From assembly GCA_005191425.1 (NCBI GenBank), contig SUPR01000003.1, positions 36,986 through 68,985 on the forward strand: DNA of 32,000 nucleotides, given 5' to 3'. Every line of letters starts with the position of its first letter. Within the stretch, counting starts at the first letter, position 1. Below are positions 5,070 to 14,504 of this stretch, piece after piece. This DNA is from Candidatus Helarchaeota ASGARD archaeon Hel_GB_B (GTDB lineage Archaea; Asgardarchaeota; Lokiarchaeia; Helarchaeales; HEL-GB-B). The position numbers were made by a program, and so were the translations under genes. A model generated the notes under the pieces. That model had not been told where the DNA came from, ran no database searches, and worked only from the letters and a program-made list of their open reading frames with translations.

Positions 5070-5642
5070 GTGATTAAAGAACTTATTAAAAATGTTAAAA
5101 ATTTACTAAAAGAACGTGGATTTGAGAATATTAAATCTGAAGAATCTTCAGATAAAGGCAAAATAATAATTAGGGCCGAATATAATCCATCTAAAAGCAG
5201 TAAACCAGAAAGTGTAATGGTCTATGTTTGGGACCCCGAAGAATCTGTCGGAGTTCAAGATGCAAGGGAAATCGTTAAAATATTTAAAAACACAAAAATA
5301 AAAAGACGATTTCTTGTTGGAGGTTCAAAATTCACTAGGATGGCTAGGATGCACTTAGAAGAAAATAAAGTGGAATATATTCCAACTGAATTAGTAATGT
5401 TAAATGTGTTAGAACATGAATTGGTCCCAAAACACAGAATTTTAGATAAAGAAGAGGCTGAAAAGTTATTATCAAAGCTAAAAATAGACAAATCTCAATT
5501 ACCAAGTATTCTAGTTAATGATCCTGTTGCAAAAATAATTGGTGCGCGTGAAGGCGATATTATAGAAATAATTAGAGAAAGTAAAACTGCTGGAACATCA
5601 ATAGCTTACAGACATGTGATAAGAAATATAGAAGGAATTTAG
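5070..5642 (+). CDS. rpo5: RNA polymerase subunit Rpo5/RPB5, two-domain (eukaryote-length) form
   Basis: C-terminal HELVPKHRIL...QLPSILVNDPVAKIIGAREGDIIEIIRESKTAG is the RpoH assembly domain. About 110 extra N-terminal residues resemble the RPB5 jaw domain (VKNLLKERGF, SVGV). Confidence 0.92.
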   Translation: MIKELIKNVKNLLKERGFENIKSEESSDKGKIIIRAEYNPSKSSKPESVMVYVWDPEESVGVQDAREIVKIFKNTKIKRRFLVGGSKFTRMARMHLEENKVEYIPTELVMLNVLEHELVPKHRILDKEEAEKLLSKLKIDKSQLPSILVNDPVAKIIGAREGDIIEIIRESKTAGTSIAYRHVIRNIEGI

Positions 5643-9447: not shown

Positions 9448-9546
9448 CTTCTTTTTATTATTTGAATAAATATTTTAATGAAAAAACTTAATTTATTATT
9501 AATTTTTATAATTATAAAATATGAAATAAAAATGAATGTGAATAAA

Positions 9547-9786
9547 ATGGCTAATAAAAATTCTGGGACCAAATATGTTGATATTTCAATTCCGGCACCA
9601 TTAGCAGAGAAAATTAAAAAGCGAATGGAAGGTACTGGTTTTACTTCAATCTCAAGTTATGTGGTTTATATTTTAAGAGAAGTATTGTCCAGTATTGAAG
9701 CTGAAGAGCAAGAAAGGGAAGCTTTTAGTAAAGAAGAAGAGAAAAAAGTTAAAGAAAGATTACGAAATCTCGGATATATTGATTAA
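9547..9786 (+). CDS. Ribbon-helix-helix (CopG-like) protein with C-terminal ERLRNLGY tail
   Basis: YVDISIPAPLAEKIKKRMEGTGFTSISSYVVYILREVL is an RHH pattern. The track start at 9478 lies in AT-rich intergenic sequence; ATG at 9547 (or 9532) is more likely. Confidence 0.8.
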   Translation: MANKNSGTKYVDISIPAPLAEKIKKRMEGTGFTSISSYVVYILREVLSSIEAEEQEREAFSKEEEKKVKERLRNLGYID

Positions 9787-9807
9787 ATAAATAATAGAGG
9801 CTTTTTA

Positions 9808-10956
9808 ATGATCGCACCTCATGGTGGAAGATTAATAAATCGAATTTTAGGTAAAAAAGTTTGTAAAGGATTAGAAACTCAAAAGGATGAATTTCCAAAA
9901 CTCGTGTTAAATGAAGATAGAATAAAAGAAGTAAGAAACATTGCAAATGGTGTATTTAGTCCATTAGAAGGTTTTTTAACCCAAAATGATTTTTTATCAG
10001 TATTAGAATATGGTCGCTTATCTTCTGATGTTCCTTGGACAATTCCTATTGTTTTAGACATTGATATTGAGAAAAATGACAAATTTTCAGCCGGAGACGA
10101 GGTATTATTAATTGACAAAGATGAAAAAATAATTGCTATTTTAGAATGCGAGGAATTATATCAATATGACAAAAAAAAGATGGCAGAAAGTGTGTTTGGA
10201 ACTAACGATTTAGACCACCCAGGAGTACGCCAAGTCTATTCCATGAACGATTATTTAATAGGTGGAAAGGTTTCAATGATAGAATGTACACCTACTGTTT
10301 TTCCGCAATTAAATTTAACACCAAAAGAAACACGCGTCCTTTTTAAGGCGAAGGGATGGAAGAAAGTTGTAGCATTTCAAACTAGAAATCCACCCCACAT
10401 AGGGCATGAATATGTACAAAAAACAGCATTAACATTTATGGACGGAATTTTTATTAATCCAGTGGTCGGAAACAAAAAGCCGGGCGATTTTAAGGACGAA
10501 ATTATAATTGCATGCTATCAAGAACTAATTAAACAATATTATTTAAAAAATTCTGCGGTATTATCTATTTTTGAGACGCCTATGCGATATGCTGGACCAA
10601 AAGAGGCAATATATCATGCAATTGCTCGAAAAAATTTTGGGTGCACTCATATAATTATTGGTAGAGATCATGCTGGAGTAGGCAATTATTATGGCTCTTA
10701 TGACGCCCATAAAATATTTGATGAATACCCTGATCTAAAAATTGAGCCTCTTTTTTTCAGGTCATTTTTTAGGTGTACCAAATGTGGTACAGTTGTAAAT
10801 GAAAAAATCTGTCCCCATGATGAGAAATTTCACATAAATTTTAGTGGTACCAAAATACGTAAAATGATCCAAAATAAAGTACTTATTCCAAATGACTTGA
10901 TGAGACCTGAAATTGCAAAAATAATTTTAAATACAAAGAATCCCTTTGTTGAATAA
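9808..10956 (+). CDS. sat: Sulfate adenylyltransferase (ATP sulfurylase)
   Basis: PHGGRL, FSPLEGF, FQTRNPPHIGH, MRYAGPKEA, IIGRDHAGVG, SGTKIR. Confidence 0.97.
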   Translation: MIAPHGGRLINRILGKKVCKGLETQKDEFPKLVLNEDRIKEVRNIANGVFSPLEGFLTQNDFLSVLEYGRLSSDVPWTIPIVLDIDIEKNDKFSAGDEVLLIDKDEKIIAILECEELYQYDKKKMAESVFGTNDLDHPGVRQVYSMNDYLIGGKVSMIECTPTVFPQLNLTPKETRVLFKAKGWKKVVAFQTRNPPHIGHEYVQKTALTFMDGIFINPVVGNKKPGDFKDEIIIACYQELIKQYYLKNSAVLSIFETPMRYAGPKEAIYHAIARKNFGCTHIIIGRDHAGVGNYYGSYDAHKIFDEYPDLKIEPLFFRSFFRCTKCGTVVNEKICPHDEKFHINFSGTKIRKMIQNKVLIPNDLMRPEIAKIILNTKNPFVE

Positions 10957-10974
10957 ATAATTGGAGAACAAATA

Positions 10975-12372
10975 ATGTCTAATAAACTTATTGTTATTGG
11001 TTTAGATTGTGCTGTCCCTGATTTAGTTTTCAATAAATTCATTAATGACCTACCAAATTTAAGATATTTAATTGACCATGGCATTTCAGCTCCTATGCGG
11101 TCGTCTGACCCACCAATTACTATTCCTGCATGGTTGATTATGTGTACTGGTGTTGATGCAGGATTTCTTGGACTTTATGGTTTTAGACATCGTTTAAATA
11201 ATTCATATACAGACATCTGGATAGCTAATACTCAAAAGGTAAAAATGCAGAAGGTATGGGATATTTTAGGCGACTTCGGATTAAAAAGCTGTCTAATAGG
11301 TATTCCCCCATCTTATCCAATTAAAAGAAATGAAGGATGGACAATTTCTTGTTTTATTACCCCCGATACAACAAAGCAATATACTCATCCAAAAGAGTTG
11401 AAACAAGAAATTGAAGCATTAGTCGGCGAATATATGTTCGACGTTGAATTCAGGACTGATTTAAAGGACAAATTGATAAAAGGCTTATTTGAAATGACTA
11501 AAAGGAGACATAAGGTGATCAAATATCTTTTAAAAGAAAAACCTTGGGACTTTTTCATGTTTGTGGAGATAGGACTTGATAGAGTTCAACACGCGTTTTG
11601 GAAATTTTTTGACGAAAAACACATTAGACATAAACCTGGTAAATATTCTAAAGTAATTCCGGACTATTATCGCCTGTTGGACAAACAAATAGGTGAAATT
11701 CTTGATTTAATAGATGATGATACAAAAGTTTTAGTAGTATCCGACCATGGTGGAAAAGCAATGAGTGGGTGCTTCTGTATAAATGAATGGTTGATAAAAG
11801 AAGGCTACTTAGTACTAAGAAATTACCCACAGAAAATGACCCGTCTCGAAGAATGTGATATTGATTGGAGTAAGACTAAAGCTTGGGGCTGGGGCGGATA
11901 TTATGCAAGGATATTTTTCAACGTTAAAGGTAGAGAGCCACAAGGTATTATTGATCCGGAAAATCTAGAGCAAGAAAAAATGGAATTGATTGAAAAAATT
12001 ATGCAGATAAAAGACCCTAATGGTCGAATAATGAAAAATAAAGTCTACGAGCCTAAAGATTTATACAAAATAGTTAAGGGCGATCCTCCCGACCTAATGG
12101 TCTATTTTGATGATTTATATTGGCGTTCCGCTGGGACTATTGGTCATAATAAATTATTTTTAGAAGAAAATGATACTGGACCCGATGACTTAGTCCATGA
12201 TTATTATGGAATTTTTATCCTATATGACCCCAAAATTAAGAAAAAAATACGTCTCGATAATGTTTCAATATTTGATATATCTCCTACAATCTTAAATATC
12301 TTTGATTTAGATGTCCCCGGATACATGAAGGGAAACATAATAGGTTATGGGAAAAATAATGGTCAAGTATAA
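10975..12372 (+). CDS. Alkaline-phosphatase-superfamily protein (type I phosphodiesterase / COG3379-like)
   Basis: VIGLDCA, PPITIPAW..MCTG (Thr nucleophile), GLDRVQH, VVSDHGG, C-terminal GPDDLVHDYYGIF. Confidence 0.85.
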   Translation: MSNKLIVIGLDCAVPDLVFNKFINDLPNLRYLIDHGISAPMRSSDPPITIPAWLIMCTGVDAGFLGLYGFRHRLNNSYTDIWIANTQKVKMQKVWDILGDFGLKSCLIGIPPSYPIKRNEGWTISCFITPDTTKQYTHPKELKQEIEALVGEYMFDVEFRTDLKDKLIKGLFEMTKRRHKVIKYLLKEKPWDFFMFVEIGLDRVQHAFWKFFDEKHIRHKPGKYSKVIPDYYRLLDKQIGEILDLIDDDTKVLVVSDHGGKAMSGCFCINEWLIKEGYLVLRNYPQKMTRLEECDIDWSKTKAWGWGGYYARIFFNVKGREPQGIIDPENLEQEKMELIEKIMQIKDPNGRIMKNKVYEPKDLYKIVKGDPPDLMVYFDDLYWRSAGTIGHNKLFLEENDTGPDDLVHDYYGIFILYDPKIKKKIRLDNVSIFDISPTILNIFDLDVPGYMKGNIIGYGKNNGQV

Positions 12373-12898
12373 AGGAGTTACCGTCTGGTTTACTGGACTA
12401 TCTGGGTCTGGAAAGTCTACAATTGCGGACTCTTTAAAGGAAAAACTTAAATCTATGGGAATTAAAAGGGTTGAAAGAATTGACGGCGATGTTCTTAGAA
12501 AAACTTTATGCAAAGATCTTGGCTTTACAAAAGAAGACCGCAATACGAACATTGAAAGAGTTATTTTTATTGCTAAATTATTGACTAGAAATGATGTTAT
12601 TGTATTAACAAGCTTTATTTCTCCTTATAGAAAATTGAGAAATATTGGAAAAAAGGAAATCAAAAATTTCATCGAAGTTTACGTGAAGTGCCCTTTAGAA
12701 GAATGTATTAAACGCGACCCAAAAGGACTATATAAAAAGGCATTAAACAATGAGATCCAAAATTTTACTGGGATATCTGACCCCTATGAAGAACCAAAAA
12801 ATCCAGACCTAATTTTATATACTGATAAAGAAACCGTTGATGAAAGCGTACAAAAAGTTCTCAACATAATCATAGAAAAAGGTTATATCGAAATTTAA
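12347..12898 (+). CDS. cysC: Adenylylsulfate kinase
   Basis: VWFTGLSGSGKSTIA, IDGDVLR, DLGFTKEDR, RDPKGLYKKA, FTGISDPYEEP. Overlaps the upstream stop. Confidence 0.97.
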   Translation: MGKIMVKYKGVTVWFTGLSGSGKSTIADSLKEKLKSMGIKRVERIDGDVLRKTLCKDLGFTKEDRNTNIERVIFIAKLLTRNDVIVLTSFISPYRKLRNIGKKEIKNFIEVYVKCPLEECIKRDPKGLYKKALNNEIQNFTGISDPYEEPKNPDLILYTDKETVDESVQKVLNIIIEKGYIEI

Positions 12899-12983
12899 TA
12901 TAAAATTTATTCAATAAAGCAAAAATAATTTATTTGAAGCTATGTAATTTGTAATATCTTTTATTATATTTTAAAAAATAAAT

Positions 12984-14504
12984 TTAAATTTTTATTCTTC
13001 TTATAGCTTGCGTGATTTTCTTTTTTTCAGTTAAATCTTTAAGATTTCTTTCGGAAATCTCCTTTTCTTTAAGGTGCATTACTATCTTATTTCTAAAGAT
13101 GCGATTTAATTTTGGATATTCCTTAATTACATTAATTTTTTCTTCAGGGTCGTTTTCTAAATCATACAATTCTTCATTCATAGTTTCTTCGTTTATAATA
13201 TATTTCCATTTAGAAGTTCGATATGAAATTATCCTTTTAATGGATGGGTCGTGCAAATTTGAAAATCTTGTAATACCTTCTTTATGAAATGTTTCACTAA
13301 ATACTCCTTTATGGATTGGGTCATCTTGAATTTCCTGGTCGTAATAAATTAAGTCAGCAAAACTTTTTCCAGTGAAACTTGGCTCCGGAGGTAATCCTAA
13401 CAATTTTAATATTGTAGGTGCAAGATCTCTCATATCTATGATATTTTTAATATCTTTTTGCTTTATTTTTTTAAGCTTTTTTAATTCATTACTAATGAAA
13501 ATTAATGGAACTCTTAGTATTTCGTCATGTAATTGTGCATTATGCCCATATGCTCCTCTTTCATAGAATTCTTCTCCATGGTCTGCAGTGATAACTGTAA
13601 GCGTATTTTTTAACCAATTTCTATTTTTTCGATTTAATTTCTTAAAAAATCTCCTGATTTTTGCATCCGCATATCTAATTTCCGCATCATACAAATTTAA
13701 TAACTTATCTGTCATTTTATATTCGCGTAATATTTCCATATATTCAGGGTGTTCTCGTATATATTTTATTTCTTTTAATGTTAATTTGTCTGCTTTTATC
13801 TTTTTAAGAAATCTTTTATAAGGAAAATACGGATCATGGGGTTCCATTAAGTGAACCCATAAAAAATATGGTTTTTTCTGTCTATTTTCTCCCATATTGT
13901 ATTTTTTTAACCATACAAATGCTTTATGGAGTAGTATTTTTGCGTTTTCATAGTATTCTTTTCTCCCAATAAATTTCGTATAAAACGCAACTTGAAAATA
14001 ATATTGAAACTTTTTGGGAATTTTTATACTTTGGAAAAAATTCATGATATTATTTAATAATGACCCTTTCGTCATAAACTTGCTTAATAAACTATTTTTA
14101 ATTGTGCTATCGCTATTAGTTAACATGGCATCATAAAATATATCAAATCCTCTATCATATCCATAAAATCTTGATAATAATGGCGTAGAGTGAATAGCAA
14201 CTGTTATATATCCACGACTCTGTAGAACTTCTGCTAATGTCGTCTTATTCTCAGGTAATGGTGAATATCCCCCTTGATGGAATGGATAAGTCGAAGTAAA
14301 TATAGAAGAAAATGATGGTGGAGTACAAGGACCATTTGAAATAACTTGTCGGAAAAAGAAACCCTTCCTAGCTAGTTTATCAAGATATGGTGTAGTCTTT
14401 TTTTCATAACCCATAATACTTAGGTGATCTAACCTTAAGGCATCAATTGTAATTAATAACAAATTCATTTTTCGTTTATTCATTTTTTTACCCTTATCTT
14501 TCAT
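12984..14504 (-). CDS. Sulfatase-like AlkP-superfamily hydrolase/transferase (Thr nucleophile, no CxPxR)
   Basis: ITIDALRLDH, NGPCTPPSFSSIFTS, WVHLMEPHDPY, YDAEIRYAD, TADHGEEF, ELYDLENDPEE. Confidence 0.88.
   Translation of the reverse strand: MKDKGKKMNKRKMNLLLITIDALRLDHLSIMGYEKKTTPYLDKLARKGFFFRQVISNGPCTPPSFSSIFTSTYPFHQGGYSPLPENKTTLAEVLQSRGYITVAIHSTPLLSRFYGYDRGFDIFYDAMLTNSDSTIKNSLLSKFMTKGSLLNNIMNFFQSIKIPKKFQYYFQVAFYTKFIGRKEYYENAKILLHKAFVWLKKYNMGENRQKKPYFLWVHLMEPHDPYFPYKRFLKKIKADKLTLKEIKYIREHPEYMEILREYKMTDKLLNLYDAEIRYADAKIRRFFKKLNRKNRNWLKNTLTVITADHGEEFYERGAYGHNAQLHDEILRVPLIFISNELKKLKKIKQKDIKNIIDMRDLAPTILKLLGLPPEPSFTGKSFADLIYYDQEIQDDPIHKGVFSETFHKEGITRFSNLHDPSIKRIISYRTSKWKYIINEETMNEELYDLENDPEEKINVIKEYPKLNRIFRNKIVMHLKEKEISERNLKDLTEKKKITQAIRRIKI

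Follow-up and report, generated by a model that had tools for sequence, protein, structure and literature searches.

A copG/RHH-sat-NPP-fold-cysC cassette in a Helarchaeota genome: an Asgard copy of a described PAPS-forming operon, with a central enzyme that may remove pyrophosphate or spend PAPS

The stretch of DNA considered here (hereafter 'the window') comprises 32,000 nucleotides of the Asgard archaeon Candidatus Helarchaeota Hel_GB_B (assembly GCA_005191425.1, contig SUPR01000003.1, positions 36,986 to 68,985) and carries a compact operon for the synthesis of 3'-phosphoadenosine 5'-phosphosulfate (PAPS). Four genes encode a small protein of ribbon-helix-helix (RHH) type, ATP sulfurylase (Sat), an enzyme of the alkaline phosphatase (AlkP) superfamily with the fold of the nucleotide pyrophosphatases/phosphodiesterases (NPPs), and adenosine 5'-phosphosulfate (APS) kinase (CysC); a fifth gene, for a protein of sulfatase fold, is convergent with them (Table 1). 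Packing is tight, with 21 nucleotides between the RHH gene and sat, 18 between sat and the AlkP gene, an overlap of 26 between the AlkP gene and cysC, and 85 from cysC to the convergent gene downstream. The RHH gene is taken to start at ATG 9547, although its longest open reading frame (ORF) begins at 9478, because its homologues are about 78 residues long. Gene content, order, packing and overlap, and the convergent second AlkP/sulfatase-like gene, were all as given in a preliminary description of the locus, and its statement that the window holds no APS/PAPS reductase, sulfite reductase or P-loop sulfotransferase domain held true for the ORFs scanned. The genes for Sat (NF003166, 504 bits against a cut-off of 387; single-copy in the host genome) and CysC (TIGR00455, 234 bits, above cut-off) bear out the proposal that the operon makes PAPS. 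The host assembly spans 3.54 Mb and is 93.7% complete, the locus lying on its contig C118.

Table 1. Genes of the cassette and the convergent gene, in positions of the window.
Feature	Position	Strand	Evidence
RHH/CopG-like mini-protein, 79 aa	9547..9786	+	homologues, conserved C-terminal tail
sat, ATP sulfurylase, 382 aa	9808..10956	+	PF14306 + PF01747 E 1.7e-89
NPP-fold AlkP-superfamily enzyme, 465 aa	10975..12372	+	PF01663 E 2.6e-44
cysC, APS kinase, 183 aa	12347..12898	+	PF01583 E 4.8e-61
Thr-type sulfatase-fold protein, 506 aa, cytoplasmic	12984..14504	-	PF00884 E 2.7e-49 + SGSH_C

The enzyme encoded between sat and cysC is modelled by AlphaFold2, from 18 homologues, as one globular and soluble domain (residues 1-459; pLDDT 90.7, pTM 0.91), and its sequence has neither a signal peptide nor a membrane segment. 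Its closest solved folds are ENPP1, ENPP3, ENPP6 and the Xanthomonas (Xac) NPP, at 13-17% identity, with Foldseek E-values of about 1e-16 and TM-scores of 0.56-0.60 by query and 0.70 by Xac NPP. The threonine of its PPIT motif, T49, is the putative nucleophile, and D11, D202, H206, D257, H258 and H408 are the putative metal ligands, roles assigned from the residue pattern and not from an inspected superposition; all seven residues are invariant across 18 homologues from many phyla, in which more than 100 positions do not vary. The Pfam match, NPP-like fold, threonine nucleophile and two-metal ligand pattern together place the protein in the NPP/PF01663 branch of the superfamily. A search of PDB sequences with the family profile returned no match, an NCBIfam scan assigned neither this enzyme nor the RHH protein to a family, and tblastn found no further AlkP paralogue in the window's own genome. 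Literature searches returned nothing relevant on COG3379, or on the alkaline phosphatase superfamily in combination with PAPS and sulfotransferases.

Relatives of the enzyme are abundant: more than 7,000 were found at E <= 1e-10, those of 55-60% identity lying in Asgard, Bathyarchaeia, Nitrososphaeria, Thermoplasmata and Hydrothermarchaeota archaea and in the bacterium Mobilitalea, and a scan of one genome per species placed the gene in at least 594 archaeal and bacterial species, with Archaeoglobi, Thermococcus, Aminicenantes, Eubacteriales and Omnitrophota among the carriers. Gene neighbourhoods were counted in the best 80 related loci, each from a different species. Either sat or cysC was present in the fetched flanks of 77 loci and both in 56; sat lay immediately upstream of the AlkP gene in 55 of 73 loci and cysC immediately downstream in 61 of 74, an arrangement far from chance. 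Fusions of Sat to AlkP number more than 200 proteins of about 865 residues, and several AlkP-CysC fusions of about 690 residues were also found. All 11 genomes without cysC beside the AlkP gene carry it elsewhere, and in Archaeoglobi and others the order is RHH-DHH-AlkP-cysC or AlkP-cysC, with sat not nearby. An RHH homologue of 70-105 residues heads the cassette in 47 of the 80 loci. A gene of the DHH family stands between sat and the NPP-fold gene in 13 of them and is hence optional; the DHH protein of these fuller cassettes is a clear homologue (8A8K, E 1.2e-83; 13-14 loci) of the Methanothermococcus thermolithotrophicus phosphatase for 3'-phosphoadenosine 5'-phosphate (PAP), MtPAPP. The window itself has no DHH PAP phosphatase gene, and the host genome gave no match to the DHH protein of locus L036, used as an MtPAPP-type query. 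Recurrent neighbours include TauE or PhoU/TrkA_C-type transport genes, and nucleotide-sugar and glycan genes (epimerase/dehydratase, UDP-glucose dehydrogenase, NTP-transferase, GT2).

Several further members of the NPP-fold family were encountered during these comparisons. Divergent paralogues of 515-657 residues, 21-29% identical to the core enzyme, adjoin the cassette in about 12 of the 80 loci and in a closed, sulfotransferase-less Asgard genome (L105 11704-13281 and 13694-15280; L008, with four copies; L006, L054, L055, L072, L075 and L080). A more divergent subfamily (375-437 bits, against 630-860 for orthologues) is found in the cysC-negative Asgard genomes G070, G081, G100, G127 and G149 (genus g22) and G133, and could represent a sister family that acts on another substrate. 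The NPP-fold proteins of Methanocaldococcus and Methanotorris share 83-85% identity with a copy in a Thermococcus metagenome-assembled genome (MAG); these proteins are far closer than their organisms, and the cassette has therefore moved recently among hyperthermophiles.

The preliminary description had supposed an uncharacterised sulfation pathway, a supposition that must be withdrawn, as the cluster has already been described (PMC8268124, PMC4463584). In Pyrococcus yayanosii, pych_17520-17560 comprise copG and genes for ATP sulfurylase, a DHH PAP phosphatase, a type I phosphodiesterase/nucleotide pyrophosphatase and APS kinase, with TauE adjoining, and the same cluster is listed for Ferroglobus, Aciduliprofundum, Aeropyrum and Ignicoccus (Jin et al. 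2021, PMC8268124). In Thermococcus onnurineus the corresponding genes are given by PMC4463584 as TON_1707 (ATP sulfurylase), TON_1706 (PAP phosphatase), TON_1705 (pyrophosphatase) and TON_1704 (APS kinase). The order that we find there is RHH, ATP sulfurylase, DHH, PF01663, APS kinase and TauE, and TON_1705 is identified with the NPP-fold gene because a 476-residue PF01663 protein identical to ACJ17195.1 sits between the DHH gene and APS kinase. The window's enzyme is 52% identical to ACJ17195.1 (E 2e-177) and 55% identical to PYCH_17550 (E 0), in each case along the entire protein. In T. onnurineus, the neighbourhood three genes past cysC includes a canonical Sulfotransfer_1/3 gene, among genes for a flippase, an epimerase and an aminotransferase, and the cassette there has the look of a unit that supplies PAPS for the sulfation of glycans. 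The locus of the window is thus an Asgard, DHH-less copy of a described and horizontally spread copG/RHH-sat-(DHH)-NPP-fold-cysC cassette, and the question that it raises is what the NPP-fold enzyme does.

We tentatively favour the reading that this enzyme removes inorganic pyrophosphate (PPi) and thereby pulls the ATP sulfurylase reaction forward, though at slightly less than even odds. Sat converts ATP and sulfate into APS and PPi. The equilibrium of that reaction is unfavourable, and the NPP-fold enzyme would hydrolyse the PPi formed, by means of its two-metal site and Thr49, leaving CysC to phosphorylate APS to PAPS under the probable control of the small RHH protein as operon regulator. 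The sole direct measurement in the family concerns PPi hydrolysis by TON_1705, the basis on which this activity is extended to the window's enzyme: Table 1 of PMC9653972 gives a pH optimum of 9.5, a kcat of 2.1 per s, a Km of 18.8 uM and a kcat/Km for PPi of 1.1e5 per M per s, an efficiency typical of native substrates, the values going back to Lee et al. 2009 (J Bacteriol 191:3415), cited here through PMC4463584 and PMC9653972. The more than 200 fusions join the enzyme to Sat, the producer of PPi, and sat is directly upstream in 55 of 73 loci; near their cassettes, T. onnurineus and the Asgard genus g27 each have a separate PAPS user, a sulfotransferase. Degradation of PPi by PYCH_17550 was likewise a speculation of Jin et al. 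(PMC8268124).

The pyrophosphatase (PPase) complement of the host gives this reading a setting. No family I soluble PPase was matched in the 93.7%-complete genome, which encodes two H+-PPases (L099, L100) and one CBS-DRTGG family II PPase (L101 247-1887); this suggests a PPi-conserving metabolism. Among the Asgard genomes described below, family I PPase occurs in 6 of 36 with the AlkP gene and in 38 of 85 others, a comparison confounded by lineage. Substitution of AlkP for an absent soluble PPase was considered and found weakly supported, because the family I deficit follows lineage (family f2, for example, is without family I PPase whether or not it has AlkP) and because the host has the CBS-PPase.

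Several observations weigh against PPi removal as the function. The fold is that of the NPP diesterases, which to our knowledge are not known as PPases. The alkaline phosphatase superfamily is known for promiscuity, and PPi mimics the phosphosulfate end of PAPS. Gene order points elsewhere too, in that the tightest partner of AlkP is cysC and not sat, as seen in the sat-less clusters and AlkP-CysC fusions. One genome of the window's own class, G079, has adjacent sat and cysC with neither AlkP nor family I PPase, and the NPP-fold enzyme is therefore dispensable for PAPS synthesis there. According to PMC9653972, the kcat of TON_1705 is about 10,000-fold below that of Ton1914, the family I PPase of the same organism. 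Finally, if the enzyme were a PPase only, 20 of the 36 AlkP-bearing Asgard genomes in the sample below, one of them closed and 100% complete, would be left without a recognised consumer of PAPS.

It is with this consumer that the most serious alternative is concerned. In the host genome, none of the sulfotransferase families Sulfotransfer_1, _2, _3, _4 and Stf0 (PF00685, PF13469, PF03567, PF17784, PF09037) was matched, although for PF03567, PF17784 and PF09037 the control genomes gave no match either; tblastn with the Thermococcus sulfotransferase found nothing in the host genome, and NIR_SIR sulfite reductase was without a match in this 93.7%-complete assembly. A search of the genome for cysH and sulfite reductase had been suggested; besides the negative result for NIR_SIR, two PAPS-reductase-domain proteins are encoded outside the locus. 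One (L002 847-3426, minus strand, contig C56) is an 859-residue protein with weak DNA primase PriS matches at its N-terminus (residues 27-210) followed by PAPS-reductase and 4Fe-4S domains, and the other (L001, contig C162) combines PUA and PAPS-reductase domains. The host also has one Inositol_P (CysQ/SuhB-type) gene. With no NIR_SIR match in this genome, and with cassettes in other genomes sitting among nucleotide-sugar and glycan genes, use of PAPS here appears non-assimilatory, as had been proposed, and PAPS most likely feeds sulfation rather than assimilation.

Across genomes, the distribution of sulfotransferases is uneven. In a sample of 121 evenly drawn Asgard genomes, 36 carry a strict AlkP orthologue, 32 of these showing cysC. 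Sulfotransfer_3 is present in 14 of these 36 as against 17 of 18 strong-cysC, AlkP-free genomes (Fisher p = 9e-5, related genomes not being independent), an under-representation that would be expected from the proposal, in the preliminary description, that AlkP may itself be a PAPS-dependent sulfotransferase. AlkP carriers without Sulfotransfer_3 that are also without Sulfotransfer_1 and NIR_SIR number 19 Asgard genomes in nine genera, among them G087, closed and 100% complete; among 40 genomes of many phyla that carry the cassette, Sulfotransfer_1 or _3 is present in 16, NIR_SIR in 10 and neither in 17, one of the last being a closed Nitrososphaerales chromosome. In the closed genome G087, genes for two NPP-fold paralogues, RHH, Sat, DHH, the NPP-fold orthologue and CysC precede a methyltransferase gene and genes of nucleotide-sugar metabolism, and the whole genome is free of sulfotransferases. 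In G079, the genes after the sat-cysC pair encode in turn a methyltransferase, a sulfotransferase, a protein of Thr-type sulfatase fold, another sulfotransferase, glycosyltransferases and an ABC-2 exporter. Sulfotransfer_3 matches lie 5-10 kb from the cassette in genus g27. A phmmer search of all ORFs of the 80 loci with the Thermococcus sulfotransferase gave no match; judged by this one query, a neighbouring sulfotransferase is not a general feature of these loci.

Such a pattern is what would be expected if the NPP-fold enzyme were the PAPS-spending step, a sulfotransferase outside the P-loop class as first proposed; we regard this as possible, though less probable than PPi removal. Thr49 would attack the sulfuryl group of PAPS, PAP would leave, to be cleared by the DHH phosphatase where present, and the sulfo-enzyme would hand its sulfate to an acceptor, which could be a glycan, a sugar precursor or the tyrosine of a docked LGY tail (see below); the measured PPase activity would then be a side reaction on a mimic of phosphosulfate. 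The cassette has every step around PAPS except the consumer that turns it into PAP, and in M. thermolithotrophicus the genes for ATP sulfurylase, APS kinase and DHH PAP phosphatase co-occur with those for a PAPS reductase (PMC10322725). P. yayanosii, in which neither a sulfotransferase nor a sulfite reductase was identified (PMC8268124, section 3.3), has the cluster, as do the consumer-less Asgard and other genomes counted above, whilst G079, with no AlkP, keeps two sulfotransferases alongside sat-cysC. The constant company of cysC, the AlkP-CysC fusions and the sat-less clusters of Archaeoglobi point the same way, and the NPP-type fold, low kcat and likeness of PPi to the phosphosulfate end fit equally. 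The comparative pattern thus agrees with the proposal, but the orthologue TON_1705 is presented in PMC4463584 and PMC9653972 as an inorganic pyrophosphatase, and PPi hydrolysis at a respectable kcat/Km is the sole activity measured. Canonical sulfotransferases stand beside the cassette in T. onnurineus and genus g27, and AlkP is therefore no simple replacement for them. Identity of 50-60% across two domains of life is unusual for acceptor-specific sulfotransferases, the many fusions join the enzyme to the PPi producer, and MAG incompleteness or unrecognised sulfotransferase families could account for the missing consumers. We know of no sulfo-threonine transferase in the alkaline phosphatase superfamily. 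Neither reading is refuted: PPi removal is kept as the tentative preference and PAPS spending as its less probable competitor.

A second line of evidence on the enzyme comes from the small protein at the head of the operon. Pfam gave no RHH match to it even at E <= 1, the Thermococcus orthologue has a sub-threshold RHH_1 match (E 0.005), and the P. yayanosii counterpart is named copG (PMC8268124). An acidic linker leads into a conserved C-terminal tail, FSKEEEKKVKERLRNLGYID (residues 60-79, about nucleotides 9724-9783). All 47 RHH homologues end in an acidic stretch and the motif [KR]-x-[RK]-L-[RK]-x-L-G-Y-[ILM], and the 21 archaeal and bacterial sequences that were aligned all keep R71, L72, L75, G76 and Y77. 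The window's CysC ends in ...IIEKGYIEI, which resembles this motif, and many cassette CysC proteins end in a similar LGY[LI]. In L033 (9355-9978) and L057 (491-1114), where the order is sat-cysC-AlkP and there is no RHH gene, CysC is extended by a complete tail of the RHH type, EEEEKIKERLKSLGYL, from which it follows that the tail moves separately from the DNA-binding domain. It was absent from all 115 stand-alone and all 120 Sat-fused AlkP orthologues. Of about 14 divergent NPP-fold paralogues in the loci, just one, at L054 13864-15798, carries the tail in cis (RLRNLGYL).

When the window's own RHH and AlkP proteins were modelled as a complex, the score was 0.78 against 0.00 for the best of three controls; 58 of 80 solved complexes attain this mark, as do 2 of 110 mismatched pairs, figures that are approximate here because own alignments were used. 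Three runs share at least 87% of contacts, with partner pLDDT of at least 72. The modelled interface joins RHH residues 59-79 to AlkP residues 48-50 (including the nucleophile T49), 69-71, 156-160, 306-309, 384-388 and 399-404, so that the RHH tail is predicted to plug into the catalytic cleft of the enzyme. Such docking would go some way towards accounting for how unusually conserved the cleft is, and by analogy points to an enzyme-regulator coupling like that of CysE-CysK or TnrA-glutamine synthetase, in which occupancy of the enzyme could be relayed to regulation. Combined with the chemistry of PAPS spending, the model also allows a narrower proposal, which we consider somewhat unlikely, namely that an NPP-fold enzyme gated or completed by the RLxxLGY tail of RHH or CysC is the missing PAPS consumer, a sulfuryl transferase with a threonine nucleophile.

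The same tail invites the view that the NPP-fold enzyme acts above all as a sensor of metabolites or as a regulatory partner. On this view the RHH tail, and perhaps that of CysC, binds in the cleft, PPi, PAPS, APS or PAP compete with the tail to set operon expression or CysC activity, and catalysis is slow and secondary. CysK with CysE or CymR, and glutamine synthetase with TnrA or GlnR, are analogues of such a role. The modelled complex, the invariance of the tail in archaea and bacteria, its transfer to CysC in the RHH-less loci, its absence from the AlkP orthologues themselves and the low kcat reported for TON_1705 are all in keeping with it. The invariance of the catalytic residues across domains nevertheless speaks for genuine catalysis, control of transcription alone would give little reason for fusing the tail to CysC, and the complex is a model and not a measurement; as the main role, sensing seems to us improbable.

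Lastly, the enzyme might be the PAP phosphatase of cassettes that, like the window's, are DHH-less. The window has no DHH gene and its genome no MtPAPP-type match, and the phosphoesterase beside sat and cysC in M. thermolithotrophicus turned out to be such a phosphatase; the host's Inositol_P gene could, however, clear PAP. As a main role this was rejected: 13-14 loci, as well as T. onnurineus and P. yayanosii, have the NPP-fold gene together with a true DHH PAP phosphatase, and the enzyme therefore has another job, which leaves PAP hydrolysis a very slight prospect in the window.

The convergent sulfatase-fold gene bears on these questions only as a neighbour. Its nucleophile position, T61, is conserved (x-T-x-P-S-[FH]; T61-P-P-S-F in the window copy), whilst the adjacent Cys60 varies among relatives (C, W, A, Y). 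The formylglycine motif C/S-x-P-x-R was not found in the protein, its arginine being absent in eight relatives, and EptA/MCR models match far below their cut-offs. From the conserved threonine and missing arginine, together with the invariant T49 of the NPP-fold protein, it follows that both AlkP-type genes of the window are of the Thr type, as had been described. Relatives of the convergent gene adjoin the cassette only in the nearest relative, L004, and lie within 10 kb in L031, L036 and L054. Others are found beside PAPS or sulfotransferase genes (L104 4320-5765; L102 2556-4028; L103 2852-4309 and 12976-14403): that of G079 lies between its two P-loop sulfotransferases, 2.5 kb from sat-cysC, and on two metagenome contigs Thr-type sulfatase-fold genes adjoin Sat-AlkP fusion genes. 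In the Asgard sample, cysC is present in 15 of 21 genomes with this Thr-type subfamily, compared with 59 of 121 overall. Membership of the cassette was considered and rejected, since the gene adjoins it only in L004 and relatives lie within 10 kb in 4 of 80 loci, close to a rough estimate of chance; the gene is an accessory neighbour outside the conserved cassette.

The surrounding DNA is low in GC (about 28%) and archaeal, with other genes of the window encoding Pus10, RpoH/RpoF, L21e, DUF655 and Hdr/Mvh-type proteins, and the nearest homologues of its proteins lie in Helarchaeota and Lokiarchaeota MAGs. At 5070-5642 (plus strand), an Rpb5/RpoH gene has an N-terminal extension of about 105 residues with a weak Pfam match to Mrr_cat, a domain of restriction endonuclease fold (E 3e-05).

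As the copy, in an Asgard archaeon, of an operon already described, the locus is in itself ordinary. It touches, however, a gap stated in published papers: in P. yayanosii and similar organisms PAPS is made and PAP is cleared without an identified PAPS user. That gap is sharpened by sulfotransferases that are near-constant with AlkP-less cysC and often missing with AlkP, by the fusion of AlkP to both Sat and CysC, and by the regulator tail modelled in the catalytic cleft. The enzyme at its centre belongs to a family of thousands annotated merely as 'alkaline phosphatase family protein' and matching no NCBIfam model. Were it to spend PAPS, a second, non-P-loop class of PAPS-dependent sulfotransferase would be present in hundreds of archaeal and bacterial species.

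Set beside known systems, both AlkP-type proteins of the window have only the threonine nucleophile in common with transferases of the LtaS/EptA type, lacking the multi-pass N-terminal membrane anchor and beginning at the first catalytic strand and metal aspartate. With ENPP1, ENPP3 and the Xanthomonas NPP, the NPP-fold enzyme shares the fold, the threonine nucleophile and the D...T...D-x3-H...D-H...H pattern, but is some 80-100 residues longer, cytoplasmic and without a signal peptide, and the published substrate of its T. onnurineus orthologue is PPi and not a nucleotide diester. In the cysteine synthase complex and CymR-CysK systems, the C-terminal tail of CysE is inserted in the active site of CysK. 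The likeness lies in a short, conserved tail of a partner or regulator predicted, here by modelling only, in the cleft of a sulfur-pathway enzyme; the folds are unrelated, and here the tail belongs to an RHH protein or, at certain loci, to CysC.

Closer in gene content is the M. thermolithotrophicus operon, in which ATP sulfurylase, APS kinase and a DHH PAP phosphatase stand alongside an APS-reductase-like PAPS reductase (Jespersen et al. 2023, PMC10322725). In both, Sat and CysC are separate proteins encoded at a single locus that also has accessory phosphoesterases; that operon, however, feeds an F420-dependent sulfite reductase through its PAPS reductase, whereas the window's has no reductase, lies in a genome without a NIR_SIR match and carries the NPP-fold enzyme instead. 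Closest of all is the Thermococcales cluster. The window is without the DHH PAP phosphatase and TauE genes, has the convergent Thr-type sulfatase-fold gene, and belongs to an Asgard archaeon without a detectable sulfotransferase or sulfite reductase; yet the two have in common the order copG/RHH, ATP sulfurylase, NPP-fold enzyme and APS kinase, every catalytic residue of the NPP-fold enzyme, and the RLxxLGY tail of the RHH protein.

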